In this document: in pieces, positions 11,730 to 52,383 of the stretch
Position numbering within the stretch: position 1 is the first letter of the stretch
How the letters are laid out: the number at the start of each line of letters is the position of its first letter
NCBI GenBank assembly: GCA_039714075.1
Contig: JBDLKA010000005.1
Span: 24,788 to 88,787, forward strand
Direction of reading: 5' to 3'
Source of the DNA: Candidatus Krumholzibacteriota bacterium
GTDB taxonomy: Bacteria > Krumholzibacteriota > Krumholzibacteriia > LZORAL124-64-63
Length of the DNA stretch: 64,000 nt
Position numbers and translations under genes: made by a program
The notes under the pieces: generated by a model
The model's database searches: none
Told to the model about the DNA's origin: nothing
What the model saw: the letters and a program-made list of their open reading frames with translations, nothing else

Positions 11730-13034
<1,305 letters not shown>

Positions 13035-13111
13035 GGGAATCCTTCCTGGCCGTTCCTGACCTAAAGAAATTAACGGAACCGGCGGGCCTTACCGCCGACC
13101 CGGACCACCAC

Positions 13112-13141
13112 AAGCTAATCTGCGGTCAGGCGCATGGTCAA
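13112..13141 (-). promoter_or_regulatory. Possible sigma70 promoter of purB
   Basis: Minus strand TTGACC-N18-TAGCTT, about 80 nt upstream of the ATG. Confidence 0.35.
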
Positions 13142-13291
13142 GCCCCGGCCGGACGGCCGCCCGATTTCGCCGGTTTCGGACCCCTTATTGTTTTTGACCT
13201 GCGCCGAATGCTGTGTGGGGCTATCTTGGAGGCCGACCGGGCTGTCCCGGTCCAGGCATGCATCCCTTATCAATCGCAAGGAACACCGCCG

Positions 13292-16356: not shown

Positions 16357-16389
16357 GGCAAACTCCCGTTTCCGAAGTATTCCTGAAGT

Positions 16390-17475: not shown

Positions 17476-17503
17476 TTCACGTCTCCTGTGTAACTTGCTG
17501 TTT

Positions 17504-19416: not shown

Positions 19417-20213
19417 GGGGTCTCTCCTTGGGGAGGTGTGACTTGTTCAATGTAACCGGGGTCCATCAACCGTTCCGGATAAACAACTTCTTCGAGAAAA
19501 AGACCCCGGGCGGGCGCCATGCGGCCCGACGCGCTGCGGCTGCGGGCGGCCAGAATCCGGGGAATATCGTCGGCTTCCCGTTCGCCTCTTCCGATTTCCG
19601 CCAAGGCCCCCATCATGTTGCGGACCATGTGGTGCAGGAACCGGTTGGCCCGGACGTGAAAGATAGCCGAATCATCCCCCCAATCAAAGGCGCAAAGGCC
19701 GACATCGCAGAGGTTGTGGTCCTCCTTGAGCGATTTGGCCTTGCAGAAGCTGCTGAAATCGTGGGATCCGACAAAGGCCGCGGCCGCCCGGTCCATGGCT
19801 GCCCGGTCCAGGGGCCGGAAGATGTACCAGCAGTGCGGGCGAAAGATATCCCGCACCTGGATGAGATTGTAACTGTAGCGCCTGGCGATGGCCGAGTGGC
19901 GGGCGTTGAAGGAAGGCGAGACGCGGCGGATGCCCTGGATGTCGATGTCGTCGGGCATCATGCGGGGAAGGGCCCCGATCACCCGGTCGACCTCGGCTGC
20001 GGTTTCCACCGTCAGGTGCGCGACCTGGCCCCGGGCATGAACGCCCGCGTCGGTCCGGCCCGCGGCCACGGGAATGGCGTCCCGGCCGAGCAGCCGGGTC
20101 AATTCATGACGCATGTCGCCCTGGACCGAGCGGGCATCCGGCTGGATCTGCCAGCCATGGAAGGCCGTGCCCACATAGGCCAGGTCGATGCGCAACCTGA
20201 AAACCTCGTTCAC
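19413..20213 (-). CDS. truA: tRNA pseudouridine(38-40) synthase
   Basis: LAYVGTAFHGWQIQP, AGRTDAGVHA (catalytic Asp), HDFSSF, NRFLHHMVR; GTG start overlaps the upstream stop. Confidence 0.95.
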   Translation of the reverse strand: MNEVFRLRIDLAYVGTAFHGWQIQPDARSVQGDMRHELTRLLGRDAIPVAAGRTDAGVHARGQVAHLTVETAAEVDRVIGALPRMMPDDIDIQGIRRVSPSFNARHSAIARRYSYNLIQVRDIFRPHCWYIFRPLDRAAMDRAAAAFVGSHDFSSFCKAKSLKEDHNLCDVGLCAFDWGDDSAIFHVRANRFLHHMVRNMMGALAEIGRGEREADDIPRILAARSRSASGRMAPARGLFLEEVVYPERLMDPGYIEQVTPPQGETP

Positions 20214-21016
20214 CGGACGACCTCCAGACCGCCATGGCTCAAATACCAGACCAGGGCCGCTGTCCAGATCCCCAGCAGCGCCAGCTGCGGAAAGGGCACC
20301 CCGCCGGAAATCCGGGTGTCGGGCCGGCGGTGGCGCAGGGACAGGGTCAGGGCTTCGGCCCTGCGGGCCAGGTTCTCCAGCAGGGGAACCACCACCCGCG
20401 CGCGGGCCACGGATCTGCCGGCCCATCGTGTCAACCGGGACCGGACCGACAGGTTCCGACCGCCACCGGCGACGGAACGGCGCATGGTGACCACGGCTTC
20501 GATCCGGCGTCCCTCACCCAGCACGACCGGAGCGGTGCCCATGGCCACGGCCAGCATCAACCCCAGGTCGTCGGTGGGCAGGCCTGCCCGGCGGGCCGGA
20601 CGCAGCCACCAGCCCACACCCAGAACCAGATCATCCAGCGGGGTCACGCGCAGATAAAGACCCAGACAGCCGACCGAACAGGCGACGCGCAGCAAAGCTT
20701 TGCCGGCGGCCAGCGCGCCGGCGGTCGAGGGGTGCCCCAAAGGTGCGGCCCACGTCGTGGTGAAGGTGTGCACGATGATCACCAACACGGCCACCGGAGC
20801 CCATGGTCTGAGGGCGGCCAGCTGCCCCCGCGGTCCCATTCCCGTCCAGGCAAGGGCCACCGTGAGGACCAGGGCCATGACCGCCAGGCCTGCCGGCGCG
20901 GCCGCCATGCAGGTCACCAGGGCCAGGACCGCCCCCGACAACCGGACGGCGGGATGGAGTCCGCTCAGCGGCGTGGTTTTCAATCCCGAGGGGGCGAATG
21001 AGGCTCCGTTGATCAC
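20210..21016 (-). CDS. Energy-coupling factor transporter transmembrane component T (EcfT/CbiQ-like)
   Basis: LHPAVRL N-terminus, several TM helices, C-terminal VVPLL...RRAEALTLSLRHR coupling-helix-like motif. Confidence 0.7.
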   Translation of the reverse strand: MINGASFAPSGLKTTPLSGLHPAVRLSGAVLALVTCMAAAPAGLAVMALVLTVALAWTGMGPRGQLAALRPWAPVAVLVIIVHTFTTTWAAPLGHPSTAGALAAGKALLRVACSVGCLGLYLRVTPLDDLVLGVGWWLRPARRAGLPTDDLGLMLAVAMGTAPVVLGEGRRIEAVVTMRRSVAGGGRNLSVRSRLTRWAGRSVARARVVVPLLENLARRAEALTLSLRHRRPDTRISGGVPFPQLALLGIWTAALVWYLSHGGLEVVR

Positions 21017-22014
21017 AGCGCGGAATCTCCGGCCAAAAGACCGGCGATCTGGACGGCGTTCCAGGCGGCGCCCTTGAGCAGGTTGTCGGCGACCACCCAC
21101 AGCAGAAGGGCGTGGGGATTGTCCGGATCCTTGCGCAGACGGCCGACATGGACCGTGGTTGAACCGGCGATTTCCAGCGGGGTAAGAAAACCGTGGGGAT
21201 CGGGATCCACCTCGACGCCGGGCCATTCGGCCAGGGCGGCGGCCGCCGCCTTCAGGTCCACCGGCTTGTCACACACGAGCCGCACCGCGGCGCTGTGACC
21301 GGTTTCCACGGGAACCCGGGTGGCGGTGCAGCTCACCGCCAGGTCGGCCGAACGGTCCAGGATCTTGCGCAATTCCCGGACGACCTTGGCTTCCTCTTCG
21401 AAGGACCCGTCGTCCAGCGCGGGGCCGATGGCGGGGATGGCGTTGCGGAAAACAGGACGACCGAATGGGCCGTCCGTGTTCGCCGCGTGGCCCTGCTCCT
21501 GGTTTTCCATTTCGGCAACGGCGGCCTGCCCGGCGCCGGAAACCGCCTGCAGGGTGGTGATGTGGGCTTCGGTGACGCCGAAAACACGATCCAGGGGAGC
21601 CACGGCCATGGCTATCTGGATGGTGGAGCAATTGGGATTGGCGATGATGCCGCCGCTGCCAGCGGAACCCACAACCAGCTGACCGTTGATTTCAGGGACC
21701 ACCAAAGGGACACCAGCGGTCATTCTGAAGGCGGAGGAATTGTCCACGACCCAGGCCCCCGCCGCGGCGGCCACCGGACCCCAGGTCCTGCTGGCCTGAC
21801 CACCGGCGCTGAACAGCGCGACGTCCACACCCTCGAATCCGTCAGTCGTTACTTCCCGGCATTCCAGGGAGCGGCCGGCAAATTCCAAACTCGTTCCCGC
21901 GCCCCGGGAAGAAGACAGCAATACGGGATCACCCGTGACCCATGGGCGGTCCTCGATCAGCTTCAGCATCGTTCGGCCCACAAGACCGGTGGCGCCCAGA
22001 ACCGCGACTTTCAT
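21013..22014 (-). CDS. asd: Aspartate-semialdehyde dehydrogenase
   Basis: VAVLGATGLVG, VVDNSSAFRM, PLVVPEIN, IANPNCSTIQ, ADNLLKGAAWNAVQIA. Confidence 0.95.
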   Translation of the reverse strand: MKVAVLGATGLVGRTMLKLIEDRPWVTGDPVLLSSSRGAGTSLEFAGRSLECREVTTDGFEGVDVALFSAGGQASRTWGPVAAAAGAWVVDNSSAFRMTAGVPLVVPEINGQLVVGSAGSGGIIANPNCSTIQIAMAVAPLDRVFGVTEAHITTLQAVSGAGQAAVAEMENQEQGHAANTDGPFGRPVFRNAIPAIGPALDDGSFEEEAKVVRELRKILDRSADLAVSCTATRVPVETGHSAAVRLVCDKPVDLKAAAAALAEWPGVEVDPDPHGFLTPLEIAGSTTVHVGRLRKDPDNPHALLLWVVADNLLKGAAWNAVQIAGLLAGDSAL

Positions 22015-22166
22015 GGAATCTCTTCTTCCTGATTGGATAACCGTATTTGCGGGTCATGGTAACACCCCCGTTACGGGGGGTCAAAAGCGGTGATTGGCCC
22101 ATCGGCAAAGCAATGTTAATCTCATCCACGTGAATCATTCTGGAACATCAGAAACGGGGACGTGAA

Positions 22167-24389
22167 ATGAGCCGAAAATTCAAAACATCAACGGGAGTCC
22201 ACCTGTTATTCCCCGTGGCCCTGGTATTCCTCGGCCTGGTCGTCATCCTGGCCGGCTGCCTCCCCGAACCCGACGATCGCCAGGACAAGCTGGCCGTCGT
22301 CGCCCGCTGGCAGGATCAGCGCCTGGCCCCCCTGGACTCGCTGGTCACCATGCTCACCGACGAGGATGCCCATGTCCGCCTGGCTTCCGTCAGGGCATCC
22401 GGCCTCATCGGGCGCGATGATGTCCTGCCCCAGATGGTCGCCGCGCTTGACGACCCCAGCGTCACCGTCCGCGCCGAGGCCGTCTGGAGTCTCGGCCTGC
22501 TGGGCAGTGACGATGCCCTTCCCGCCATGGAAAATGCGGCCAAGGACCCCCGGCCGGTCATCCGCCAGGCTGCCCTGGCCGCCCTGGCCCATGTCCCCAA
22601 CGACGGGCAGGCCCTGCTGGCGGCCGCCGTCCAGGGCGAGGCGGCCGAAGTCGCCCTGGCCTGGGATGGATTGCGCAACATGGCCGACCGTACGGACACC
22701 GAAAGCCTGGTGGCCGTCATCCGGGCGGCCCTGGCCCGGCCCGAAGCCGATGTCCGCTGGCGGGTCCTGCGGTGCGGGGAACTGGTCCCCGATCCGGCGC
22801 TGGCCGAACTGGCCGCACCCTTCGCCTCGGCCGACGAGACCCAGGTCCGGGTTCACGCCTACCGCTGCCTGGCGCGGCACGAGTCCCCGGTTTCTCTGAA
22901 CGCCGTTCTGGAAGGATTCGAGAGCCACGAGGGATTTCGCGACAGGGACAACGCGCGCGTGACGATTGCCGGCTGCCGGGCCCTCGGGCGTTTGGGCGGC
23001 CTGGCCCTGGCCCCTGAAGGCGCCGCCGATCCCGGAAAAATCGCCGCGGTCCTGATCACCGCCGCGGGCAGCGGCGACCCCCATGTCGCCGAGACGGCCC
23101 TGGCGGCCATGGCCCGAATGGTTGCCGCCGCTCCCCTGCCCCCGGAAGCCGCCGACCAGGAAAGCCTGCTGCCTGTGTGGCGTATTCGCATGGCCCGCTC
23201 CGCGCGCTCCCATCTGGACCGCCCCCATACCGGCGTCCGGGCCGCGGCATTGGCCGCCGCCGCCGCGGTGCGCGGAACCGGTTCCGCGGACGACCTGACC
23301 CGTTCCCTGGCGACCGATGAATCGCCCCTCGTTCTGGCGGCGGGCCTGCGCGCGGTCAGCCGCCATCATCCCGATCCCGCCGCGCTGCTGGTCCATTTCG
23401 CGGAGATCGATTTCCCCACCGACTTCGGGGAATTCGCGCGCCCGGTGCTGCACAATGCCAGGGTGCGCGAAGCGGCCTATGAAGGTCTGGCCCACCTGCT
23501 GAAGGAAAGACCGGAACTGGTGCCGGATTCCTCGTCCGGCGCCCGCCTGGAAAGCCATCTTTATGCGGGTTTGGACGACAAGGATTTCGTGGTTGCCGCC
23601 AGCACGGCGGACCTGGTCGGCGACTTCCCCTGCTGCGGGTCCCTGAGCGCCCTGATCAGACTCTGGGATCGTGCGGCCGGGCCCGACCGGTTCGAATTGA
23701 GAAGGGGTGTTTTGGCGGGCCTGACCAAGATGCTGGATACCGAAAAAGGCACCTGGCAGGGCCCCGACAGTTTGAGAACGCAGGCGGCGGCGCTGCTGCG
23801 GCGGTCGTTCGATTCCACCGATATCCGCCTCCGCCTGGAAGGCCGCCTGGCGGCCCTGGCGAGCGGCATCCTGCCTGACAATCTCATCCCCACCGAAGCC
23901 AGTCTCAAGGCCACCCTGCCCGCCGTGGCGAGGAACCCCGGCCAACCCCCGGTGGCCGTCCCGTTCGACGCGCCCCGGGTGAGATGCGTCACGCCCCGGG
24001 GTGAGTTCGTCATCGAACTGGATGGCCGGATCGCGCCCAACACCTGCGCCGTTTTCCTCGATCTGATCAAAAAGGGATACTACGACGACCTGACCTTCCA
24101 CCGGGTCGTTCCCGATTTCGTGGCCCAGGGCGGGGATCCCCGCGGCGACGGGTGGGGCGGTCCGGGCTACACGATCCGCAGCGAGTGGAGCCGCGCCCGT
24201 TACGAAAGAGCCGCCGTGGGTATCGCCCACGACGGCAAGGACACCGGCGGCAGCCAGTTTTTCGTCACCCTGTCCGAACAGCCGCACCTGAACGGCCGCT
24301 ACACCATTTTCGGCGCGGTGACCAAGGGCATGGAAGTCGTCGACGCGCTCGAGGTGGACGACCACTTCCGCTTCGAGATCCTGCCCTGA
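22167..24389 (+). CDS. HEAT-repeat lipoprotein with C-terminal cyclophilin-type peptidyl-prolyl isomerase
   Basis: Lipobox LAGC; Ala/Leu-rich HEAT-like repeats; FHRVVPDFVAQGGDP, GSQFFVT, PHLNGRYTIFG. Confidence 0.88.
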   Translation: MSRKFKTSTGVHLLFPVALVFLGLVVILAGCLPEPDDRQDKLAVVARWQDQRLAPLDSLVTMLTDEDAHVRLASVRASGLIGRDDVLPQMVAALDDPSVTVRAEAVWSLGLLGSDDALPAMENAAKDPRPVIRQAALAALAHVPNDGQALLAAAVQGEAAEVALAWDGLRNMADRTDTESLVAVIRAALARPEADVRWRVLRCGELVPDPALAELAAPFASADETQVRVHAYRCLARHESPVSLNAVLEGFESHEGFRDRDNARVTIAGCRALGRLGGLALAPEGAADPGKIAAVLITAAGSGDPHVAETALAAMARMVAAAPLPPEAADQESLLPVWRIRMARSARSHLDRPHTGVRAAALAAAAAVRGTGSADDLTRSLATDESPLVLAAGLRAVSRHHPDPAALLVHFAEIDFPTDFGEFARPVLHNARVREAAYEGLAHLLKERPELVPDSSSGARLESHLYAGLDDKDFVVAASTADLVGDFPCCGSLSALIRLWDRAAGPDRFELRRGVLAGLTKMLDTEKGTWQGPDSLRTQAAALLRRSFDSTDIRLRLEGRLAALASGILPDNLIPTEASLKATLPAVARNPGQPPVAVPFDAPRVRCVTPRGEFVIELDGRIAPNTCAVFLDLIKKGYYDDLTFHRVVPDFVAQGGDPRGDGWGGPGYTIRSEWSRARYERAAVGIAHDGKDTGGSQFFVTLSEQPHLNGRYTIFGAVTKGMEVVDALEVDDHFRFEILP

Positions 24390-33413: not shown

Positions 33414-33449
33414 AAAAAGCCGGCCGCGGTATGGTACCGCGGCCGGCTT
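33414..33449. terminator. Probable bidirectional terminator between the porin and cytochrome genes
   Basis: 15-bp perfect stem AAGCCGGCCGCGGTA/TACCGCGGCCGGCTT, 3-nt loop, A5 on the left flank. Confidence 0.8.
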
Positions 33450-33478
33450 ACTTTCATCCCCCTACCGGAATTATCGGA

Positions 33479-36133
33479 TCAGCGGATCAACGTCATCTTG
33501 TGCCGCAGGTCACCGCTGTTGGATTTCAGCACATAGTGATAGACGCCCGAAGCCACGCCGCGGCCCCCGTTGTCCTTCCCGTCCCAGCGCACCTGGTTGT
33601 CGCCTTCCGGAGCCATGCCGTCGACCAGGGTCCGCACCAGGCGGCCGCGCTCGTCGTAGATCCGCAGCGAGACCTTCTGCGCGGACGGCAGGCTGAAGTC
33701 GATCCAGGTCTGCGGGTTGAACGGATTGGGATAATTCTGCGCCAGGGTCGTGATGCGCGGCACCACCGGGTCCGGAGCCCCTGTCAGATCCAGGATGGCC
33801 GACTGCTGGGCCACGGCGATCGGGGTGCTTTTCCCGTTGTTGTTCCAGGCGTCGTAGACTTCCTGGCCCAGGGTGTTGGTATGGTTGTTGTCGCGCAGGA
33901 ACTCAACGTATTCCTTCGAGGTGGTCTGGTAGTAGTAGGCGACATCCACCCGCCGCGCCTCGTTCGGCAGCAGGTACACGGTGTCGTCCCAGTACTGACC
34001 GTCGGCATAGGAATAATCCACCGGAGGTGACTGCGCCGTCACGAAGGCGGCGTTGGTGAAGCCGCGCGGCGGAATACGGTTGTCCGAATAGACGGTGTCG
34101 CTCAGGGGAAAGTAGAACGACGGACCGGCGGGCATGCCGATGATGGCCGACAGCCTGGTCGAGATGCCCGGCTTGATCTCGTAGATCTTGGCGTCGGCGT
34201 CATGGCTGAGCACTCCCGTCGCGTCGTCGTAGTTGCCGCTTTCATACACCAGGGCGTCCCCGGCGTCATAGGCCTTGACGTTCAGCCACATGCGCCGCCC
34301 CTCGGGATAACCGGACGGCAGTTTGTGACCGGTCTCGTTGGTCAATCGGACAGTGACTGCGGGCTGGCCTTCCACCGGCGTGACGGTCAGGTCCATGGTC
34401 GCGGACAGGGTGAGCATGGCGATGGCCCGCTGCTTGGCCGCCTGAAGGATGGTGGTGTCCAGCTCCGGGTAGAATATTGGCAGGATATCCGGCAGGAAGG
34501 TGTTGCCGCCGGTCAGATCGTGCAGGCCGAGATCGTTGCGCGTCGGGGAGCCCGGCTCGCTGCAGCCCACGCCCGTGACATCCCGCATGTGGCAGTCCTG
34601 GCAGCTGGACACGATGCCGTCGGGCTTGTCGCCGGCGAACTGGGGCGCATAGACGCCCGTAGTCGCATACTCGCTGGCCTCCCACTCGCTGAAGGTCCGC
34701 TCGACGGGGACCATGTTGCGACGGTCGCCGTCGGGATGCGGCGTGTCGAGCGCCTGCACCTCGTACTTGCCGGGCGCGTCGCCAGCCACGAATGCCGGGT
34801 TGCTCACGTCGTGACACGTTCCGCACATCCTGGAAGAGGTCAGGAATTCGGTGTCCAGGAACTGGTGGCTGGCCTGGGCGTCTGCGTACGGCCCGCGCAT
34901 GATCGGGTCGGGATCGGTGACGAATTGGCCGTTGGCGGGCTCCAGGGCAGGGTTGTCCAGTTCGGCGATGATTTCGGCATCCCGCTCGGGACTCACGCCC
35001 TCCACGTAGACCGGATCGACCATGCGGTGGCAAAAATCGCACTGGATTCCGTGCAGGTCCTTCTCGGTCAACATTCCACCTGAAGTATCGAAAGAACGAC
35101 CTTCCTGCCAGCCCCCGGGCGTGTGGCAGCGCAGGCAAAGATCGCCCACCGCGGGCACGACCTCTTCCGCCACGGCCACGGTGGCCATGAACAAGGGGTC
35201 ACGCTGGGCCTGGCCCATCATGCTGCCCTGCCAGTTGTGCCAATGCTCCACAGCCGGATCGTATTCACCGTGGCAGGTGATGCATGACGTCGACGGATCG
35301 GCCAGGGGGCTGCCCTCGAAGGGATTGGTGCCGCCCAGGTCGAAGTCCCGCAGGGTCGTGGGCACGATTCCGGTGGTCACCGGCTCGATGGTGAAGGAGG
35401 CCGGACTGTCGTCATGGGCTTCGTTGCCCGCGTTGTCGTAGGCCTCGACGCGCAGGACGCTGTTGGCGCTCGGTAAGTTGGGGAAGAACATGTCGAAGGT
35501 CCCGGTGTTGGGCAGGCCCCGGGCCATCATCTTGAAGTTCGACCCGCCGTCATCACTCAGGTAGAGCTCGATCTGGGCGATGCCGCCCGCGTCGGAGGCG
35601 GTCCAGGAGACAGTCTGATAGGTAGCCGCGGGAATCAGTTCCCCACCCACGGGCCAGGAGATGGAAACGGTCGGCGGCGTGCTGTCGGTGGGTCCGGACG
35701 GCGTCAGGTAATCCGTCAAATCCGCCGGTGTGACGTTTAGGACGCCGCCCACATTATCGGCCTTCAGGCCGGGAAAGGTCGGTGTGTTGGACCAGTTGAT
35801 GACGTCGGTGATCTCCACCAGGTTGCTGAACCCGTCATTGTCGGTGTCCTCGTTTTCAATGTCGATGATGGCGTCGGCGGTACTCATGCCGGCGGCCAGA
35901 CGTACCTCGAGGGCCAGACCGTAGGGATTGCGGGCATCGCTGCCGTCGAAGTCGAAATGGCAGACGCCGCAGTGACCCGCGTTGCTGGGGACATCGTCCA
36001 GCACGGTGCCCTCGGCCCCTGGATAGCGGTCGAAGAATGCCCGGCGGAAGGGATTGCGGGCGGAACTCAGGGTGGGAAGGAGCAAGGCGATAAGGACCAG
36101 AAGCAAAACGAGCCGAAACTGGCGAGACAACAT
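33479..36133 (-). CDS. Secreted hexaheme c-type cytochrome with Ig-like domain and C-terminal FlgD-Ig/T9SS-type sorting domain
   Basis: Signal peptide; CGVCH, CITCH, CLRCH, CDFCH, CGTCH, CQDCH; DTDNDG Ca loop; terminal QNYPNPFNP...IYDERGRLVRTL...WDGKD...ASGVY...KMTLIR. Confidence 0.88.
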   Translation of the reverse strand: MLSRQFRLVLLLVLIALLLPTLSSARNPFRRAFFDRYPGAEGTVLDDVPSNAGHCGVCHFDFDGSDARNPYGLALEVRLAAGMSTADAIIDIENEDTDNDGFSNLVEITDVINWSNTPTFPGLKADNVGGVLNVTPADLTDYLTPSGPTDSTPPTVSISWPVGGELIPAATYQTVSWTASDAGGIAQIELYLSDDGGSNFKMMARGLPNTGTFDMFFPNLPSANSVLRVEAYDNAGNEAHDDSPASFTIEPVTTGIVPTTLRDFDLGGTNPFEGSPLADPSTSCITCHGEYDPAVEHWHNWQGSMMGQAQRDPLFMATVAVAEEVVPAVGDLCLRCHTPGGWQEGRSFDTSGGMLTEKDLHGIQCDFCHRMVDPVYVEGVSPERDAEIIAELDNPALEPANGQFVTDPDPIMRGPYADAQASHQFLDTEFLTSSRMCGTCHDVSNPAFVAGDAPGKYEVQALDTPHPDGDRRNMVPVERTFSEWEASEYATTGVYAPQFAGDKPDGIVSSCQDCHMRDVTGVGCSEPGSPTRNDLGLHDLTGGNTFLPDILPIFYPELDTTILQAAKQRAIAMLTLSATMDLTVTPVEGQPAVTVRLTNETGHKLPSGYPEGRRMWLNVKAYDAGDALVYESGNYDDATGVLSHDADAKIYEIKPGISTRLSAIIGMPAGPSFYFPLSDTVYSDNRIPPRGFTNAAFVTAQSPPVDYSYADGQYWDDTVYLLPNEARRVDVAYYYQTTSKEYVEFLRDNNHTNTLGQEVYDAWNNNGKSTPIAVAQQSAILDLTGAPDPVVPRITTLAQNYPNPFNPQTWIDFSLPSAQKVSLRIYDERGRLVRTLVDGMAPEGDNQVRWDGKDNGGRGVASGVYHYVLKSNSGDLRHKMTLIR

Positions 36134-36289
36134 GGCGGATCTCCCCTGATCATGGTGGTGGATTCTTCGGACCAAGAATCGGAATGAACCGCAAACTCAG
36201 TATCGAAATTTTGAAAACATTATGACGGAATCAGTACTGATTAGCAACCCTAAAAAGCATGTATTTTTGATGAAAACTGATTTTAAGAA

Positions 36290-38299
36290 TCATCTAAACT
36301 TATCCAGGACATCCACATCAACCCACCAGATATCCGTACTCCCATTGGTGTTATCTTTGTGTAGCTTTAGAAAATTTTCACGTTTAATTTTATCTTTTGT
36401 GTTGTTTTCTGTCTTATTGGTGCTGAAAAATAAATACTTCCCATCAGGTGAGAGAGAACCCGATGCGGCGCGCAAACCGGGCCCGTTGAACGGGTCGCCC
36501 GGATTGACCGCGGGGCCCCAACTCCCCTTCTCTTCCCGGAAACTGATCCAGTAATCGCTGTTCCCCAGATTCTCGGGGTGCCCGTTCACACAGAAAAGGA
36601 GCCAACTTTCGTCGGGGGCCACGGTCCCGTTGTAATTGGCCTGGCCCACGTTGACGGTGGCCGGCAGCCGCCGGGGCTCCCCAAAACCATTTCCCAACGG
36701 CTCGGCCGCCCAGAGGGCCGCCTGTCCCTGGTCGTCCTCACGCGTGAAATAAAGTGTCCCGTCGGCGGCAAGGCTGGGAAAATATTCCGCGGCGGAGGTG
36801 GTGATCGGCGCCGCGAGGGCCTCGGGTTCCTCCCAGACCCCATTGACCAGGCGGCTGCTGAAGATGTTCTGGTTGGCCCACCCCTGCCCCTGCTCCTGAC
36901 CCGGAGCGGCGCGGTTGGACAGGAAAAGCACCCGCTGCCCGTCAGCCGCAAGGGTCGGCTCGAAACAGAAGAACTCCCCGTCGCGGTGGAAGGGCACCGG
37001 AGCCGGTTCTGTCCAGCGCCCCCCAGTCAGCCGGGTTTCCATGATCGTGACCAGGCCCTGCCCCATGAAACCGTACCAGATGGTTCCACCGTCGCCGCTG
37101 ACGAGCAGGTCCCGCTCGTTCATGCCGGTGCTGACGATGCCGGGCGCAAAAACGACGGGTTCGAGACCAGGCGGCTCCTGGCCCAGATATGGGCCCGCCA
37201 ACTCCGGAAAGGGGACCGGCTCCGGACGCGGGCCGGAAACCGCGGCTGGTGCGGGAACATCGACGGCGGCCGGCAGATCATCCAGAAAATCCGCCCGGAC
37301 AAGGTTGATGTTGGGATTGCCCCCACCGGCGATCAGGTGGGCAGTCTGGAGATCGCCCCACGCCGCGGGCCAGGCAGGCTCGGGAATGTGCCGGCGCGCG
37401 GACATGAACATGAAGGTCCCGCCGTCGGGAGTCAGGTAGGGAGACCAACTCTGCGGCGATCCGTCGTTGATGACCGGCCCCAGGTTGACGGGTTCGTTCC
37501 AGGTGTCGTCTTCGTTGCGGCGAACCAGGAAATAGTCCACCTGGCCGTGACTGCCGGGCATGCCCGCCGCCGGTACGATCAGAAGGGTCTCGTCGGGGGA
37601 GATCGTGGCGTTGAAACGGTTCACCCCGCAGTTGACCTGGTCGGGGAGTAGCTCGGGCACCTGAAAACCGTCTCCGTCCGGACGGGCGCGAAAGATCCGG
37701 TGGATCCTTCCCGTCGAATCGGCCCGGGTGAAATAGAGGGTCCCGTCCCGGGTGACGGCGGGAAAAAACTCCGCCTGGTCCGTATTGACCGGACCGTCCA
37801 GGTTCCGGGGCTCGCTCCAGCGGTCCCCCTGGCGGTCCATGACCCAGATATCGGCCTCCCCCTTTTCCTCGCCGGCTTCCGGCCGGGTGGACATGAAGAA
37901 GAACCGCTGCCCGTCCGGCGAGATGAACGGTTCCAGGTCCAGCCAATCCGGCGACCCGGAGAAAGGGGCGGTTTCCGGCTCGGTCCAGGCCCCGTCCGCG
38001 AATTGGGTGACCAGGATGACGGCGTAGCGATAACCCGGGGCGGCCATGCAGAAGTACAACTGCCGACCGTCCGGGGTCATGGTCACGTCGCGGGTGTTGA
38101 CGCCGGTATTGACCATCCCCGGCGCGAGCAGCGCGGGAACGGCTGTGGGGACGGTTCCCCCGGGGAGCCCCGGCGATGATTCAGAAACGGTGTGGCCGGA
38201 GGCTTCCGGCGAATCCGCTGCCGGTGAAAGAGCGACCCAACCGAACACCGCCGCGATCAGGAGGGGAATGACCCGAAACATCCGGTGCCGGAAAGCCAT
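36290..38299 (-). CDS. Secreted protein with two tandem PD40/TolB-like beta-propeller modules
   Basis: Signal peptide; repeated P..SPDG..L.F.S motifs; two homologous halves (APGMVNTGVNTRD / APGIVSTGMNERD). Confidence 0.8.
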   Translation of the reverse strand: MAFRHRMFRVIPLLIAAVFGWVALSPAADSPEASGHTVSESSPGLPGGTVPTAVPALLAPGMVNTGVNTRDVTMTPDGRQLYFCMAAPGYRYAVILVTQFADGAWTEPETAPFSGSPDWLDLEPFISPDGQRFFFMSTRPEAGEEKGEADIWVMDRQGDRWSEPRNLDGPVNTDQAEFFPAVTRDGTLYFTRADSTGRIHRIFRARPDGDGFQVPELLPDQVNCGVNRFNATISPDETLLIVPAAGMPGSHGQVDYFLVRRNEDDTWNEPVNLGPVINDGSPQSWSPYLTPDGGTFMFMSARRHIPEPAWPAAWGDLQTAHLIAGGGNPNINLVRADFLDDLPAAVDVPAPAAVSGPRPEPVPFPELAGPYLGQEPPGLEPVVFAPGIVSTGMNERDLLVSGDGGTIWYGFMGQGLVTIMETRLTGGRWTEPAPVPFHRDGEFFCFEPTLAADGQRVLFLSNRAAPGQEQGQGWANQNIFSSRLVNGVWEEPEALAAPITTSAAEYFPSLAADGTLYFTREDDQGQAALWAAEPLGNGFGEPRRLPATVNVGQANYNGTVAPDESWLLFCVNGHPENLGNSDYWISFREEKGSWGPAVNPGDPFNGPGLRAASGSLSPDGKYLFFSTNKTENNTKDKIKRENFLKLHKDNTNGSTDIWWVDVDVLDKFR

Positions 38300-41295: not shown

Positions 41296-41749
41296 GCAGT
41301 GAGAATAGGGGACATGGCGGTTCAATTCCAGTTCAGCCCAAACCTGAACCCTCCCGGAGGGTTTGAATGAATTAAAATATCCAAAATTCTGTTATTTTTT
41401 TGATAGCCTGAGCATCCCGGCTTTTTACGATTGGAAAGAACCTGTTTCGGCTACCTGGCCACGTTTTTGGAAGATGTTTTTTGGTGAAACAAGACAAAGT
41501 TGTCCTTAAATCTTTTTTTTAACAGGCAATACCATGGGGTTCAGCAGAACGACTTAAAACACAGTATTTTACCATGATTTTACCGGCGGCGTCCGGTAAC
41601 GAAGGTTGGATCTGATTATTCTGCAAATTCACCAGATTGGCTGTTGTCGCAGCCCCATCAAATCCTTTGATCGGACCGGCCCGATGATTCACCCTACCTC
41701 CATAGTCCCATTCCAGTTTCGGTCCATTTCCAGGACAAGGAGCCCGACG

Positions 41750-43078
41750 ATGAAACGAATCCTGATCGCCACCTGTGCCGTGGCCTTCCTCCTGACCGGC
41801 GCCGCCCTGGCCGCCGAAGAAACAGTGGCCGGCAAGTGCATGACCTGCCACAAGGAAAAGTCACTCGGTCTTTACAACCAGTGGTACAAAAGCGAACACG
41901 CCAAGCACAACGTGACCTGCCTGGACTGTCACAAGGCCGCCGAGGGGGACAGCGACAGCTACATGCATGAGGGCGCCCTGATCGCGACCCTGGTCACTCC
42001 CAAGGATTGCGGCAAGTGCCACGAGAAGGAGGCCCAGCAGGTCAACGACAGCTACCACGCGCACGCCGGAGAGATCCTCGATTCCAAGGACGCCTATCTG
42101 GCCCACGCCGCGGGCGGCGCGCCGGCTGCGATCGCCGGCTGCGAAAGCTGCCACGGCAGCAAGGTCAAGATCGATCCGGACAGCCCCAACAAGCTGGACC
42201 GCTTGAGCTGGCCCAACAGCGGCATCGGCCGGATCAACCCCGACGGCAGCAAGGGCGCCTGCACGGCCTGCCATACCCGGCACGCCTTCAGCGTCAAGCA
42301 GGCCCGCCAGCCCGAAGCCTGCTCCAAGTGCCACCTGGGCCCGGACCATCCGCAGAAGGAAGTCTACGAGGAGTCCAAGCACGGCAACGCCTACTACACC
42401 CACAAGGACGAGATGAACCTCGATTCCGACCGCTGGGTCGTGGGCGTGGACTATTATGAAGCCCCCACCTGTGCCACCTGCCACATGTCGGCCACGCCCA
42501 AGCAGCCCATCACACATGACGTCGGGCAGCGCATCAGCTGGACCCTGCGTCCGCCGGTGTCGGTGACCAAGGAAGACTGGGAAACCAAGCGGGCCAACAT
42601 GAAGGATGTCTGCATCAACTGCCACGGAGCCGCTTTCGTGGACGGCCATTACGCCCAGTTCGACGGCATCGTCAACCTTTACAACGAGAAGTACGCCAAG
42701 CCGGGCCTGGCCTTGTACAAGAAGGCCAAGGAACTCAAGCTGGGCGAAGGGGTCGCCAACTTCTCCAACAAGTACGAGTGGATCTGGTGGGAGATCTGGC
42801 ACCACGAAGGCCGCCGCGCGCGCCACGGCGCCGCCATGATGGGCCCCGACTATACCTGGTGGCACGGCATCTACGAGGTCGCGCAGCACTTCTACTTCAA
42901 GTACATCCCCGAGTTGCGGAAATTCCACAACCCGGAGCTGGACAAGATGATCGACGAAGTGATGGCCGACCCCTACCACAACTGGCTGAACCGTCCGACC
43001 GCCGACATCAAGGCCGACATCAAGTCGGGCAAGATGGAGGAAATGTACAAGGACATGTACCAGGTCGGAACCAAGTAA
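41750..43078 (+). CDS. Octaheme c-type cytochrome, hydroxylamine oxidoreductase (HAO) family, reductive type
   Basis: AAGGAG RBS, signal peptide, eight CxxCH, CHLGPDHPQ, HHEGRRARHGAAMMGPDYTWWHG. Confidence 0.88.
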   Translation: MKRILIATCAVAFLLTGAALAAEETVAGKCMTCHKEKSLGLYNQWYKSEHAKHNVTCLDCHKAAEGDSDSYMHEGALIATLVTPKDCGKCHEKEAQQVNDSYHAHAGEILDSKDAYLAHAAGGAPAAIAGCESCHGSKVKIDPDSPNKLDRLSWPNSGIGRINPDGSKGACTACHTRHAFSVKQARQPEACSKCHLGPDHPQKEVYEESKHGNAYYTHKDEMNLDSDRWVVGVDYYEAPTCATCHMSATPKQPITHDVGQRISWTLRPPVSVTKEDWETKRANMKDVCINCHGAAFVDGHYAQFDGIVNLYNEKYAKPGLALYKKAKELKLGEGVANFSNKYEWIWWEIWHHEGRRARHGAAMMGPDYTWWHGIYEVAQHFYFKYIPELRKFHNPELDKMIDEVMADPYHNWLNRPTADIKADIKSGKMEEMYKDMYQVGTK

Positions 43079-43090
43079 AGGGGCGCAGCG

Positions 43091-44638
43091 ATGAAGCGAT
43101 TCCAGCTCTTCATCCGCGGCATCATGACGAACTGGACCGGAACGGCGGGGGTCGCCCTGGCGACCTCCTCCTTCATCCTGTTCCTGTTCTTCGAGTTGCT
43201 GCAGATCGCGGGAATCCTGAACAATTCCTACGTGGGCCTCATCAGCTACATGGCCCTGCCGGCCCTGTTCATACTCGGCCTGGTCCTGATTCCGCTCGGC
43301 TGGTGGCAGTTCCGCCGGGCGACAGGACGCACGACCTCGGAGTTGCTCACTCAGAGATTCCCCGACGACATGACGAAAGCCAAAAGGCTCGGATCGTCCC
43401 TCATGGGCACGATTTCCCTGCTGACGGTGATCAACATCCTGTTTCTCGGCGTCGGCGGAGCCCGCATGCTCCATTTCATGGATACGCCGAAGTTCTGCGG
43501 AACGGCCTGCCATTCGGTCATGGAACCGGAATGGGTGGCCTACCAGAATTCCCCCCACGCCCACGTGCGCTGCATCGACTGCCATGTCGGCGAGGGCGCC
43601 GGCGCGCTGGTGAATGCCAAACTGAACGGCATGTGGCAGGTCATTTCGGCCTCCTTGGACCTGTACGACCGGCCCATTCCAACGCCGGTTCACCAGCTGC
43701 GTCCGGCGCGGGAAACCTGTGAGAAATGCCACTGGCCCGACAAGTTCTACGGCGACCGGATCAAATCCTTCCAGACCTTCGGCTTCGACCGGGAGTCCGC
43801 CGCCAGGCACACCACGCTGGCGCTGAAGGTCGGGTCGGGCGCCGGAGACGCGCACGGCACCATCCACTGGCACATCGCCGAGGCCAACGAGGTCCGGTAC
43901 CAGACCGCGGACGACCAACGCCGGTCGATGGAGTGGGTGGAGATCAAGCGGGGTGACGAATTCCACCGTTACACCAACCGGAACAACGGCGTCCACGGGG
44001 GTGGGGATACCCACTCCCCCGAGGTCCGTTCCATGGACTGTGTCGATTGCCACAACCGGGCGACCCACATCTATGAGGATCCCGAACAGGCCGTCGACGC
44101 GGCCCTGGCCGCCGGACGGATCAGCCGGGACCTTCCCTTCGCCAAGAAGGTGGGACTGGGTGCGCTGCTGGGACGGTACGGCGTTACCAAGGACGACGGC
44201 CTCAAGGGCATCGACAACGAGGTGCGCGGATACTACTTCCGCCAGGAGCACGACGGGCCGGTCAACATGCAGGACGTGGACCTGATGGTCGCAGCACTGC
44301 AGGACATCTACGCCCGCAACATCTTCCCGGGCATGAAGGTGGAGTGGAACACCTATCCCTCCCATCTCGGGCACGAGAACGACGGCGGGTGTTTCCGCTG
44401 CCACAACCAGGACATGGTCGACGAGACGGGCGCAGCCATTCCCTACGACTGCACGCTGTGCCATTCGATCCTGGCCATGGACAGCCCGACGGAGTTCCAG
44501 TTCCTGCTGCCGGCGGACGTGAAGGATCCGGACCGCAAGATGCACGAGTATCTGCGGCGGGAGTTCCTGGGCATTCCCCAGGGCGTCTTCCCGGAGCCGG
44601 ACTCCACGGAAACCCGGGAGGTGTCGCTGGTAGAGTGA
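43091..44638 (+). CDS. Membrane-anchored NapC/NirT-family multiheme cytochrome c (extended, 6 heme motifs)
   Basis: Three N-terminal TM helices, FCGTACH, CIDCH, CEKCH, CVDCH, CFRCH, CTLCH. Confidence 0.82.
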
Positions 44639-45643: not shown

Positions 45644-46294
45644 ATGAATACTTGTCACCAGGCCCGATTCCCAGCCGTGATCCTGTTTTCCCTGTGCGCC
45701 CTTGCCGCTCTAATCGCATCCCCCGCCCCGGCCGGCATCGGCGGTCCCCACGGGGAATACTCCATGGCCTACCAGGGCCCCGAAACCCTGACCCTTTTCG
45801 TGGTGCCCGACGGCAGCGGCGACACCTTCGACCAGGCCTTCCTGCCGGTCGGCGGGCGGGTGGACGCCACCATCACCTTGATACTCAGGGACGCAGGAGA
45901 GCAACCGATCGCCAATTTCCCCCGGGAAGACATGTGGCTTGAGTCAGAAGACGGAGGGCTGACACCCTGCCCAATGGGAAATATCGCGGACGCCAACACC
46001 GACGCCAACGGAATGACCTACTGGCAAAACCCCATGTATGCGGGCGGAAACAGCCAGGCCCTGACCGTGGTCATGGTCAGTGGCATGCTGATTGAATATA
46101 CCGTTGGCGTACCCCTGAGCTACAACAGTCCCGACATCAACGCGGACCGGGTCGTGAACCTGACGGACGTGCAGATGTTCACCCTGGATTTTTTCACGGG
46201 ATATGATTTCCGCTCGGATTTCTACCGGGACGGAGTCGTCAATCTCAGTGACCTGCCCGCGCTGGCTTACGCCATCGGGGCGGCCTGTCCCTGA
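45644..46294 (+). CDS. Secreted hypothetical protein with C-terminal dockerin-like double Ca-binding repeat
   Basis: Hydrophobic leader; DINADRVVNLTD and DFYRDGVVNLSD repeats. Confidence 0.6.
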   Translation: MNTCHQARFPAVILFSLCALAALIASPAPAGIGGPHGEYSMAYQGPETLTLFVVPDGSGDTFDQAFLPVGGRVDATITLILRDAGEQPIANFPREDMWLESEDGGLTPCPMGNIADANTDANGMTYWQNPMYAGGNSQALTVVMVSGMLIEYTVGVPLSYNSPDINADRVVNLTDVQMFTLDFFTGYDFRSDFYRDGVVNLSDLPALAYAIGAACP

Positions 46295-49238: not shown

Positions 49239-49604
49239 ATGAGGAATTTCCTGCATTTCCTGTTTTCCATCCTGCTGTGGATCCTCTTCGGCTACTACTG
49301 GTATGTGGTGGTCGAAAGGCAGATCAACCGGGAGCACCTCCAGCCCCTGGGCATCCTGGTCGGCATCACCGCCCTGAGCCTGGCCGTCACCCTGTGGTGG
49401 ATCGCCCACAACAAACGCATCGCCGCCAAGGGGAAACGCAAGACCCTGATGCCCGCGCCGGCCGAACCATTTGAATTCGACAACCTGAACCGCCCTATCG
49501 TCGCTCCGGACATGGCCCTGCTCCAAACCGCGGCCCGTGTGGCCATCAACGTGGACGACGAGGGCAACAAGGTCTACACCGTCGGCGGGGAAGGGGATTC
49601 CTGA
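49239..49604 (+). CDS. Small two-TM membrane protein, PgaD-like
   Basis: Two TM helices then WIAHN plus a basic stretch, as in PgaD; stop overlaps the pgaC start (TGATG). Confidence 0.5.
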   Translation: MRNFLHFLFSILLWILFGYYWYVVVERQINREHLQPLGILVGITALSLAVTLWWIAHNKRIAAKGKRKTLMPAPAEPFEFDNLNRPIVAPDMALLQTAARVAINVDDEGNKVYTVGGEGDS

Positions 49605-50872
49605 TGGATTTCTATTCCCTGCTGGTGCGTTTCGAGAACTCGTCCTTCTACCTGGCCATGCTGATCTATTTCGCCTGGTACCCCCTGGCCACCAGCGTGA
49701 TGTGGATCTTCACCTCCATCCTGTTTTTCCGGCAGAAGGAGGTGGGCGAGACCGATTTCTACCAGACCGGCGCCGAGGCGGGCGATCAGCCCATGGTCTC
49801 GTTCGTCATCCCCGCGTTCAACGAGGAAAAGAACATCGCCGCCACCTTGACCGGCGTACTCGCGGTCGAATATCCCGATTTCGAAGTCGTGGTCATCGAT
49901 GACGCCTCCACCGACGGCACCCTGGACGAAATTCAGTCTTTCCTGGCCGACCCCCGCATCCGTCTGGTCCAAAAAATGGTCAACGAAGGCAAGGCCATGG
50001 CCCTGAACGACGCCATCCCCCTGACCAGGGGCGAACTGCTTTTCGTCATGGACGCCGACGCCATCCCCATCCCGGATGTCTTGAAATACCTGGTGCCCCA
50101 TTTCCGCTACCCGCGCTGCGCCGCGGTGACCGGCAACCCCCGGGTGGTCAACCGGGACAGCTTCCTGTCCAAGCTGCAGTCGATCGAATTCGCCTCGATC
50201 ATTTCCCTGATGCGGCGGGCCCAACGGATCTGGGGTCGAATCATGACCATGAGCGGGGTGGTCGGCATCTTCCGGCGCACCGCCCTGTTCGACGTGGGCC
50301 TCTACAGTCCGGAAATGGCCACCGAGGACATCGACCTGACCTGGCGCCTGCAGATGCGCCACTGGGATGTCCGCTACGAATCCCGCGCGGTGATGTGGAT
50401 GCGCGTCCCCCAGTCGCTGAAAGGCCTGTGGTGGCAGCGGCGGCGCTGGTCCCTGGGCCTGAGCCAGGTTTTGACCCGGCACGGTCGGAACCTCCTGGAC
50501 TGGAAACAACGCCGCTTCTGGCCGGTCCTGATCGAGGCCAACCTGTCGGTGGTCTGGGCCTACATCTACGTGCTGCTGACCATCATCTGGCTGGTCAGCT
50601 ATTCCATGGGCTACCCGCCCCGCGGGGCTTCGCCCATTCCCAACTTCTGGGGCATGGTGATCGCCACCATGTGCCTGATCCAGTTGATGACCGGGGTCAT
50701 CCTGGACAACTCCTATGACCGGGCCCTCAGGAAATACTTCATCGTCGCGGTCTTCTACCCCCTGGTCTACTGGATCCTGATGGCCGTCATCACCGTGACC
50801 ACGGCCCCCGTGGGCCTGAACGTCAACCGCCAGAAGCGCAAGTACACGCTCTGGAAACCCGTCCGGGAGTGA
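49604..50872 (+). CDS. pgaC: Poly-beta-1,6-N-acetylglucosamine synthase-like GT2 (PgaC/IcaA)
   Basis: IDDASTD, NEGKAMALN, MDADA, AAVTGNPR, TEDIDLTWRLQ, QRRRW; flanking TM helices. Confidence 0.85.
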   Translation: MDFYSLLVRFENSSFYLAMLIYFAWYPLATSVMWIFTSILFFRQKEVGETDFYQTGAEAGDQPMVSFVIPAFNEEKNIAATLTGVLAVEYPDFEVVVIDDASTDGTLDEIQSFLADPRIRLVQKMVNEGKAMALNDAIPLTRGELLFVMDADAIPIPDVLKYLVPHFRYPRCAAVTGNPRVVNRDSFLSKLQSIEFASIISLMRRAQRIWGRIMTMSGVVGIFRRTALFDVGLYSPEMATEDIDLTWRLQMRHWDVRYESRAVMWMRVPQSLKGLWWQRRRWSLGLSQVLTRHGRNLLDWKQRRFWPVLIEANLSVVWAYIYVLLTIIWLVSYSMGYPPRGASPIPNFWGMVIATMCLIQLMTGVILDNSYDRALRKYFIVAVFYPLVYWILMAVITVTTAPVGLNVNRQKRKYTLWKPVRE

Positions 50873-52371: not shown

Positions 52372-52383
52372 CGTGGGATCAAG

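Follow-up and report, generated by a model that had tools for sequence, protein, structure and literature searches.

[quoted passage not shown] Such a protein is encoded by an intact open reading frame of 884 aa on the minus strand (33479..36133) of the window, the whole 64-kb stretch of marine Candidatus Krumholzibacteriota DNA that was analysed. Multihaem cytochromes are known to reach the cell surface by type II secretion together with Mtr-type porin complexes, or by the porin-cytochrome and nanowire systems of Geobacter. A T9SS-type route, if true, would add another surface path, in poorly known FCB phyla common in marine sediments and soils. We give roughly even odds (a probability of about 0.5) to the reading that the protein is a secreted six-haem c-type cytochrome, exported by a T9SS-like route and most likely a redox enzyme that works on the outer membrane or outside it. 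In the literature searched, T9SS was nowhere linked to multihaem cytochromes, to CxxCH or to extracellular electron transfer, and the preliminary description of such a path as little described is therefore fair.

Gene structure and domain layout

The reading frame starts at an ATG and its stop codon is at 33479-33481. A ribosome binding site, AGGGGAG, was read directly from the sequence 7 nt from the ATG (36141..36147, minus strand). A sigma-70-like promoter match, TTGCTA-17-CATAAT (36219..36247, minus strand), is a consensus match only, possibly not of the host's promoter type, and sits within the AT-rich 156-nt spacer that separates the gene from its upstream neighbour. The mechanical longest start, a TTG at 36175 located 14 codons upstream, was dropped because the N-termini of homologues favour the ATG. 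Three overlapping frames (33431-34030 and 34202-35083 on the plus strand, 34266-35138 on the minus strand) are high-GC artefacts; only the 884-aa frame combines a GC3 of 0.83 with homologues. The co-directional upstream neighbour (36290..38299, minus strand) matches Pfam PD40 (TolB-like β-propeller) and is probably context and not a functional partner of the cytochrome; of 82 related loci, only that of the closest relative, L001, retains this adjacency.

The protein contains six CxxCH motifs (C55, C284, C333, C365, C437, and C511), which account for 12 of its 13 cysteines and leave C524 as the only non-haem one. Shuffled versions of the protein contained such motifs at a mean of 0.004 and a maximum of 2 (100,000 shuffles), so the six haems of the preliminary description stand, and the layout it had outlined was recovered domain by domain, as follows (all coordinates on the minus strand). 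A Sec signal peptide was read from the sequence at residues 1-25 (36059..36133), MLSRQFRLVLLLVLIALLLPTLSSA followed by RN, with predicted cleavage at SSA/RN; it has a hydrophobic core and no lipobox Cys, and the N-terminal hydrophobic stretch is conserved among homologues. The N-terminal monohaem domain (residues 26-150; 35684..36058) holds the haem motif H54-CGVCH59 at 35957-35971 and gives a weak NCBIfam match to the GEGP dihaem protein (30.9 bits against a cut-off of 300). Its loop D96-T-D-N-D-G-F-S-N-L-V-E107 (35813-35848) fits the 12-residue EF-hand Ca loop, and D96, D98, D100, G101, and E107 are invariant or nearly so in 34 homologues. An Ig-like domain follows (residues 151-262; 35348..35683), with a Pfam Big_7 score of 26.9 bits (GA 24.1) and an AF2 β-sandwich at 155-250 (pLDDT 76-90).

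The pentahaem cap (residues 263-560; 34454..35347) carries the CxxCH motifs at 284, 333, 365, 437, and 511 and matches PDB entry 5ZE8 by both fold and profile. The AF2 model, which lacks the haems, is for that reason of low confidence in this region (pLDDT 28-60). It is followed by an Ig-like stem (residues 561-792; 33758..34453) modelled as a β-sandwich at 578-780 (pLDDT 65-91), and by the C-terminal FlgD_ig / T9SS type-A-like domain (residues 793-884; 33482..33757), assigned from HMMs and AF2.

More than 100 full-length homologues of ~885 aa, from Krumholzibacteria, Latescibacterota, and Eisenbacteria, are 56-83% identical and keep all six haem motifs and all domains. Orthologues from Planctomycetota and Verrucomicrobiota are 45-52% identical. 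Genomes that are closed or nearly so also encode an orthologue: CP070631.1, CP070763.1, CP070727.1, OY970342.1, OY970173.1, and ERZ25039527 contig_4355 (2.85 Mb).

The pentahaem core and its putative active site

Foldseek matches the core and stem best to 5ZE8, in which an Ig-like domain adjoins a pentahaem cap (E 1.7e-10, TM 0.54 on the target). The same entry gave the best non-FlgD match of a profile search against PDB sequences (E 1.4e-4); the match to MccSep (E 0.08) is weak and at motif level (E 0.08-0.3). 5ZE8 is the low-potential pentahaem cytochrome c552 (LPC) of Thermochromatium tepidum, in which, as in our protein, a pentahaem α-helical domain precedes an Ig-like β-sandwich. The two share the motifs W-x-G-S-M and (G/P)H-x-x-P-T/S-G-x-P. 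LPC is a soluble protein of 435 aa without the N-terminal monohaem and Ig modules and without the sorting tail, all of which are present here; it also has Ala in place of Tyr609 of the target family and His in place of Met306. MccSep (ExtKL, GSU2937-2936; PDB 9WT8) is a pentahaem selenoprotein polysulfide reductase of Geobacter sulfurreducens with the same cap-plus-stem plan (PMC13510729). It is periplasmic and tetrameric, without extra domains or tail, unlike the present protein.

The comparison with MccSep draws attention to two near-invariant loops of the stem: loop 1, N599-ETGHKLPSGYPEGRRMW616 (34286-34339), and loop 2, D684-NRIPPRG691 (34061-34084). The segment NETGHKLPSGYPEGRR of loop 1 aligns with the MccSep stem loop NHAGHSIPDGUPTPNR and with NLQPHAMPTGAPFRN of T. 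tepidum. Among 92 divergent representatives, N599, H603, G608, W616, D684, R686, P688, and G691 are invariant (92/92), G602, K604, and R613 are conserved at 98-99%, and R614 is also conserved. The MccSep loop reaches the distal pocket of haem 2, where it forms the active site with basic residues (PMC13510729). By analogy, GHKLPSGYPEGRR and DNRIPPRG would extend to core haem 2 on its distal side; these loops are placed there by homology, given the low confidence of AF2 in the haem cap.

Conserved distal ligands point to the same haem. The five core haems face only four conserved candidates in the 92 representatives, M306, H423, and H538 of the cap and H603 of loop 1. M306 probably gives one core haem His/Met ligation. 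Core haem 2 is left without a conserved His, Met or Cys distal ligand and therefore would be the substrate-facing haem, at which we infer catalysis by analogy with MccSep. Tyr609 aligns on Sec325, the catalytic selenocysteine of MccSep; this position is Tyr in 80%, His in 9%, and Phe in 7% of the 92 representatives, and never Cys. Together with the conserved Arg nearby, Tyr609 suggests, again by analogy, an anionic or otherwise polar substrate; polysulfide or S0, other oxyanions, and Fe, Mn or humic acceptors are candidates. Electron relay would fall to the other four core haems and the N-terminal monohaem domain. The working unit would thus consist of a cap with five haems seated on an Ig-like stem, the plan of c552 and MccSep.

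Assignment to the described multihaem families failed in each case. The protein shares with MccSep / ExtKL the five CxxCH motifs in the cap followed by an Ig-like stem. That family was defined by its authors through the conservation of either Sec or Cys at U325 of the stem loop (PMC13510729). Our protein scores 32.2 bits against a cut-off of 250 for NF040886, has Tyr609 for Sec325, and lacks a counterpart of the haem-ligating Cys239; none of the 92 representatives has a Cys in segment 476-502, the counterpart of that region. The DmsE HMM (12.3 against 192) gave no assignment, octahaem tetrathionate reductase was excluded by HMM scores and motifs, and NrfA pentahaem nitrite reductase by the lack of a CxxCK motif and of a PF02335 (Cytochrom_C552) match. 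Shewanella displays its multihaem MtrC/OmcA proteins on the cell surface, the location predicted for our protein; these lipoproteins carry ten haems arranged as a staggered cross, reach the surface by type II secretion, and are electrically connected through MtrAB. With six haems instead of ten and a TIGR03507 score of 8.6 (cut-off 209.3), membership in OmcA/MtrC was rejected, the MtrC/MtrF pentahaem domain PF22113 giving a marginal 29.7 bits (GA 30).

This near-threshold match is one of several observations that could be explained if the protein were a non-catalytic outlet for extracellular electron transfer, a surface haem wire to or from minerals, humics or partner cells. Six haems on a protein with a surface-sorting tail would suit that role, and the probable His/Met haem (M306) would broaden the potential range. 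The window encodes further respiratory cytochromes, a tetrahaem c3 and an octahaem protein paired with a NapC/NirT-like protein, and Krumholzibacteriota have been noted for many secreted multihaem proteins (PMC11495043). We nevertheless find a pure wire unlikely. The OmcA/MtrC and DmsE models fail, and the near-invariant polar loops lie at an enzyme active-site position. The conservation of the body across phyla, up to its orthologues in Planctomycetota and Verrucomicrobiota, fits an enzyme; to our knowledge, known outer-surface conduits are far less conserved.

The gene neighbourhood also argues against a conduit. Neither tblastn of 13 window neighbours against the 82 loci nor all-vs-all clustering of 3,402 flanking ORFs identified conserved partner genes; the largest flanking-ORF cluster is an ABC ATPase (7 loci), and a porin occurs only in locus L023. 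On this lack of a conserved flanking partner, an operon-encoded porin-cytochrome conduit was rejected. It also leaves the electron supply at the surface unexplained, since no outer-membrane conduit or conserved partner flanks the gene. Of the two functions offered by the preliminary description, extracellular redox catalysis is thus favoured by the conserved body and by the loops at the MccSep active-site position, and extracellular electron transfer is the weaker reading, with a core that is not MtrC/OmcA-like and no linked conduit.

The C-terminal domain and its exchange between lineages

Both HMMs that the preliminary description had named as a check on the terminal domain score above their thresholds: Pfam FlgD_ig (PF13860) with 50.4 bits (GA 27) and NCBIfam TIGR04183 with 27.0 bits (cut-off 23; residues 801-879). 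Pfam Por_Secre_tail (PF18962) remains under threshold with 21.2 bits (GA 27). Some relatives do have precomputed PF18962 matches. The domain contains YPNPFNP, GVYHY, and a terminal KMTLIR, and ends at the last residue (884) of a protein that bears an N-terminal Sec signal peptide. The AF2 model is a 6-7-strand sandwich at 796-882 (pLDDT 81-91); the T9SS type-A C-terminal domain (CTD) has been described as a compact 7-stranded Ig-like β-sandwich (PMC11285876). The nearest structures are FlgD Ig domains, a solved T9SS CTD is absent from the Foldseek top 50, and weak matches to the CTDs of PorU and PorZ were obtained. Identity with full-length FlgD was rejected, as only the Ig-like part matches and the FlgD equivalog NF005176 gives 34.8 against a cut-off of 230. 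By sequence, these comparisons support a tail of the T9SS type-A / FlgD_ig class at the C-terminal extremity of a Sec-exported haem protein. Type-A cargo of Bacteroidota (such as RgpB, PorZ, and ChiA-type proteins) likewise combines a Sec signal peptide with an Ig-like CTD of ~80-90 aa; the present protein differs in being a multihaem cytochrome, in the FlgD_ig subtype of its tail, and in a host phylum outside Bacteroidota.

Under a T9SS-like export, the cytochrome would pass the inner membrane by Sec, then fold and receive its covalently attached haems in the periplasm. A T9SS-like machine would recognise the C-terminal domain, the folded holo-protein would cross the outer membrane, and after removal of the tail it would be attached to the cell surface or released. 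T9SS has been reported or suspected in several FCB phyla outside Bacteroidota (PMC11285876); the literature searched holds no report of its components for Latescibacteria, Eisenbacteria or Krumholzibacteria. No SprA, PorV, PorU or GldKLMN is encoded in the 64-kb window, and no T9SS component was found in 1.29 Mb of related loci (82 loci), a sample that is uninformative on whole genomes. As SprA candidates, the ORFs of >1,400 aa in the related loci were rejected (TamB, a PPDK fusion, a CTD cargo protein, and one without Pfam match), and a regex search of these loci for FGE-sulfatase (GldK/PorK-like) signatures gave none.

The protein could instead be a periplasmic enzyme like MccSep; its FlgD-type Ig domain would then serve structure, oligomerisation or binding and would not signal secretion. 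MccSep itself resides in the periplasm, as do, by prediction, 97% of its homologues (PMC13510729). The sub-threshold Por_Secre_tail score, the FlgD Ig domains as closest structures, and the unverified status of T9SS genes in these phyla would also fit, and the electron-supply problem would vanish. What makes this improbable in our view is the behaviour of the tail. The CTD is always the last domain, with a PNPF / GxY / basic-hydrophobic C-terminus pattern. It is carried in 49 of the 82 loci, including every locus with an intact C-terminus labelled Krumholzibacteriia, Latescibacterota, Eisenbacteria or Gemmatimonadetes. The same CTD ends at least 35 further ORFs in the FCB-type loci, one of them a dihaem peroxidase adjoining an orthologue, and none in the loci from the PVC group (Planctomycetota, Verrucomicrobiota). 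PVC orthologues with the same six-haem body end in dockerin, GC-dockerin or other non-T9SS tails, dockerin and GC-dockerin being recognised extracytoplasmic anchors.

This exchange extends to the wider family. Of 80 core-family tails, curated HMMs assigned 32 to T9SS type A, 15 to dockerin, 9 to GC-dockerin, 3 to MYXO-CTERM, and 1 to IPTL-CTERM; of 128 representatives whose core end is complete, only ~10 lack a tail. The occurrence of MYXO-CTERM, IPTL-CTERM, and extracellular spacer domains (PKD, Fn3) in this family is a further argument against a periplasmic location. The distribution supports, at the level of sequence, a tail that behaves as a modular, lineage-specific sorting tag. With its C-terminal position, its exchange between lineages and the 35 other tailed ORFs, the sorting domain of the preliminary description has held up, and its reading of surface export is partly supported.

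T9SS may either anchor its cargo or release it. A soluble or vesicle-borne extracellular redox protein, serving detoxification or redox shuttling for instance, would accord with this and with the dockerin-tailed relatives, which imply attachment to extracellular scaffolds other than LPS, but we consider it very improbable, as shedding a six-haem protein would be costly and leave it with no evident source of electrons; anchoring and release are not separable by sequence.

A wider family of tailed pentahaem proteins

Clustering at 50% identity leaves the family with at least 2,727 representatives, and its members occur in 583 species genomes or more. A pentahaem sister branch of >7,500 members combines PKD, Fn3, cadherin-like or HYR spacers with Por_Secre_tail, dockerin or IPTL tails. 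We tentatively propose, at somewhat less than even odds, that our protein represents one branch of a very large, phylum-spanning, and unstudied family of cell-surface or extracellular pentahaem redox enzymes, whose catalytic body would be exported by the sorting system of each lineage: T9SS CTD in FCB, dockerin or GC-dockerin in Planctomycetota, MYXO-CTERM in Myxococcota, and IPTL-CTERM elsewhere. A body conserved across phyla with a tail swapped by lineage points to one specific extracellular redox reaction, which the conserved body suggests to be shared by many anaerobic or facultative heterotrophs. If the family-wide reading is true, T9SS exports folded holo-cytochromes, and sediments and soils host a widespread extracellular redox reaction that has escaped notice, its acceptors possibly being sulfur, metal or organic compounds unable to enter the cell.

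The work on MccSep left open how polysulfide made extracellularly reaches the periplasmic enzyme (PMC13510729). A surface-displayed relative of MccSep would be one natural answer to such an access problem, although the present family is without the Sec/Cys chemistry of MccSep. For representatives with Bacteroidota-like tails, cluster look-up gave a single name, Calditrichia, and a homologue search returned one partial Bacteroidota entry and several Zixibacteria entries.

Architecture and reading frame

The hexahaem cytochrome is encoded by an intact ORF on the reverse strand (33479-36133, 884 aa), at the coordinates assigned to it in the preliminary description. By its codon-position GC (0.61/0.46/0.83, in a window of 63% GC) the 884-aa frame is a real gene, and the ORFs overlapping it, with codon-position GC unlike that of a real gene, were rejected as not genuine. 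The start is the ATG at 36133, with AGGGGAG upstream and 7 nt between the two, and the N-termini of homologues are consistent with it. The spacer to the upstream PD40 gene is 156 nt long and AT-rich, with one sigma-70-like match.

All elements named in the preliminary description are present, as seen from HMM scores, six CxxCH motifs and an AlphaFold2 model. A Sec signal peptide (residues 1-25) is followed, in order, by a monohaem domain whose D96-E107 loop is of the canonical 12-residue EF-hand type, a Big_7 Ig domain (26.9 bits vs GA 24.1), a five-haem region, a β-sandwich and a terminal domain. Twelve of its 13 cysteines lie within the six CxxCH motifs (55, 284, 333, 365, 437, 511), a motif found on average 0.004 times in shuffles of the same protein. 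The two models proposed for checking the tail are both passed, namely Pfam FlgD_ig (50.4 vs 27) and NCBIfam TIGR04183 'T9SS type A sorting domain' (27.0 vs 23); Pfam Por_Secre_tail fails (21.2 vs 27). The AlphaFold2 model, with 34 homologues as input, is confident for the Ig domain, β-sandwich and tail, and poor for the haem region because it was built without haems.

Conserved core and relation to known cytochromes

The closest homologues (73-83% identical) are labelled Candidatus Krumholzibacteria. The best 120 matches, from Krumholzibacteria, Latescibacterota and Eisenbacteria, are 56-83% identical and nearly all full-length, mostly of 864-930 aa, with two of ~803 aa spanning 91% of the query. 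With the core (residues 270-790) as query, HMMER matched 2,727 of 1.84 billion cluster representatives at E ≤ 1e-3, of which 503 reach E ≤ 1e-30. Among 92 divergent representatives whose core is complete, conservation of the five CxxCH motifs is 95% or higher; N599, H603, G608, W616, D684, R686, P688 and G691 are invariant; G602, K604, R613, I687 and P689 are 98-99% conserved, followed by R614 (96%) and E611 (95%). Position 609 is Tyr in 80% and otherwise His or Phe.

The top fold match of the AlphaFold2 model, by far, is the Thermochromatium tepidum low-potential pentahaem cytochrome c552 (PDB: 5ZE8; E = 1.7e-10, TM = 0.54 on the target), in which a haem cap likewise sits on an Ig-like domain and which the family profile also recovers by sequence (1.4e-4). 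The profile reaches the Geobacter pentahaem selenoprotein MccSep/ExtKL (9WT8) more weakly, and the NCBIfam ExtKL model matches the hexahaem protein weakly. [quoted passage not shown] Its loop NHAGHSIPDGUPTPNR aligns to NETGHKLPSGYPEGRR of the hexahaem protein, and Tyr609 therefore stands in place of the selenocysteine, whereas T. tepidum c552 has Ala there. None of the 92 representatives has Cys at either MccSep catalytic position, and membership in MccSep was rejected for a family with neither Sec/Cys nor the distal Cys. Membership in MtrC/OmcA and in NrfA was also rejected, since their defining features failed.

Only four conserved distal-ligand candidates (M306, H423, H538, H603) are available for the five core haems, and the M306 position is His in both solved relatives. 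From this count, one core haem is probably His/Met ligated and one probably lacks a conserved sixth ligand. The preliminary description had proposed a role in electron transfer or extracellular redox catalysis. As a generic electron wire, the protein would fit the conservation and ligand pattern, and the 56-83% identity across phyla, less well than as an enzyme with a defined pocket. The hexahaem protein resembles a conserved enzyme belonging to the c552/MccSep fold class more than an Mtr-like conduit, and the proposal of an electron conduit is the less likely one.

Sorting tails and proposed export route

The hexahaem tail has the hallmarks of type-A C-terminal sorting domains (CTDs): PNPF close to the beginning, G-x-Y in the last strand but one, and a C-terminus that is basic and hydrophobic. 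It is predicted by AlphaFold2 as a sandwich of 6-7 strands and is of the FlgD_ig subtype, its closest solved structures being FlgD domains; within the window it is present on this protein only. Stronger evidence comes from comparison. When one genome per species was scanned, at least 583 contained a relative, and 82 loci were examined. The CTD is present in 49 of the 82, and where a locus is labelled Krumholzibacteriia, Latescibacterota, Eisenbacteria or Gemmatimonadetes, every intact orthologue ends in it. In Planctomycetota, Verrucomicrobiota and Pontiella, orthologues share this six-haem body (query residues 1-~780, 45-52% identity) and end instead in a dockerin, a GC-type dockerin or a '...RFYR...' tail. 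Organism labels of eight loci (L052, L069, L005, L010, L030, L064, L041, L079) are untrustworthy, their titles ('Bifidobacteriaceae', 'Fibrobacteraceae', 'Thermoleophilia', 'Hyphomicrobiales', perhaps 'Deferrimicrobium') suggesting that bins were mislabelled or contigs placed in the wrong bin.

In FCB-type loci a further 35 ORFs, one of them coding for a 2,782-aa protein, also end in this CTD, and in PVC loci none do. A second kind of haem protein bearing a sorting tail is a dihaem cytochrome c peroxidase (CCP_MauG; L049:12680-14152, +), directly downstream of a hexahaem orthologue and with the same FlgD_ig/Por_Secre_tail CTD. Curated HMMs run on 80 of 112 core-family tails identified 32 T9SS type A, 2 type C, 15 Dockerin_1, 9 GC-dockerin, 3 MYXO-CTERM and 1 IPTL-CTERM, fractions that are indicative only. 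Of 128 representatives whose core end is complete, only about 10 terminate directly after it.

No T9SS component was found among the window gene products scanned against Pfam, and neither the window nor 1.29 Mb of related loci showed translocon genes. The searched literature yielded nothing on T9SS in Krumholzibacteria-, Latescibacteria- or Eisenbacteria-type candidate phyla, nor on T9SS linked with multihaem cytochromes. For a destination at the surface or beyond, one would expect a body that is conserved and extracytoplasmic tags that are interchangeable and typical of each lineage, as seen. The tag swaps on same-bodied orthologues favor the export part of the preliminary description, and the preferred reading is a location beyond the periplasm, directed by a signal of T9SS type (probability about 0.6). 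For the full mechanism proposed, we consider the odds to be even.

Two further endings were noted. Eight orthologues of Verrucomicrobiota and Pontiella (L037, L052, L058, L059, L065, L067, L069, L072) share '...TSG...G.RFYR(F/I/V)...', matched by none of the sorting-domain models tried. Seven core-family representatives (P0169, P0173, P0185, P0206, P0244, P0245, P0247) carry a short C-terminal '(I/L)YLP(L/F)(I/V)x(R/K)' with no match among curated models, which may be an undescribed sorting motif and possibly, as a guess, of Chloroflexota origin.

More than 7,500 sequences at E ≤ 1e-30 form a pentahaem sister branch that lacks the N-terminal module; the names given by their sources include Bacteroidota, Zixibacteria, Eiseniibacteriota and Latescibacteria. 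Spacers inserted in this branch are PKD, Fn3, cadherin-like, HYR, TSP3 or MopE-like, and its ends Por_Secre_tail, FlgD_ig, dockerin or IPTL-CTERM. Database names of family members are generic ('T9SS type A sorting domain-containing protein', 'cytochrome c553', 'PKD domain-containing protein', 'hypothetical protein'). Three Eisenbacteria-type loci (L077, L078, L082) hold stop-to-stop frames of ~1,505-1,532 aa, starts untrimmed, with five haems and the CTD; their match begins at query residue 124-151, and they may bear a different N-terminal extension. A 1,989-aa stop-to-stop frame in L029 has six haems.

Genomic surroundings

No conserved neighbor of the hexahaem gene was found across the related loci. 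Only the closest relative keeps PD40 adjacent, and the convergent Porin_5 gene recurs in just one 82%-identical fragment. An ABC-type ATPase lies ~1.4 kb downstream of the orthologue in seven loci, a weak linkage. In a closed Latescibacterota genome (L002), genes for molybdenum-cofactor synthesis and for a Mo-oxidoreductase come after the orthologue (12871-17782 and 19689-22664).

The window, whose DNA is detected in a marine metagenome, carries housekeeping genes (monomeric isocitrate dehydrogenase, purine synthesis, AlaRS, RNase G) and a Pga-like exopolysaccharide cluster (49239-53433, +) of a small membrane protein, a family-2 glycosyltransferase, a TPR outer-membrane-type protein and a polysaccharide deacetylase. 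It also has some respiratory genes. One encodes a small, secreted class III cytochrome c3 with four haems and four CxxCH (11170-11595, −), likely a periplasmic electron carrier. An octahaem cytochrome (eight CxxCH; Pfam Multi-haem_cyto) precedes a 515-aa membrane cytochrome whose N-terminus is of NapC/NirT type and which has five CxxCH and one CxxxCH (41684-44638, +); together they resemble a periplasmic reductase module linked to quinol, and in L001 this pair remains less than 5 kb from the hexahaem gene. A 216-aa secreted protein (45644-46294, +), with no Pfam match, has homologues (36-38% identity) at L027:7950-8459 and L030:3909-4448, inside long CTD-ending ORFs (L027:6081-9254, L030:2166-5243) directly upstream of, and slightly overlapping, the hexahaem gene in Krumholzibacteriia-type loci, and is a possible accessory protein.
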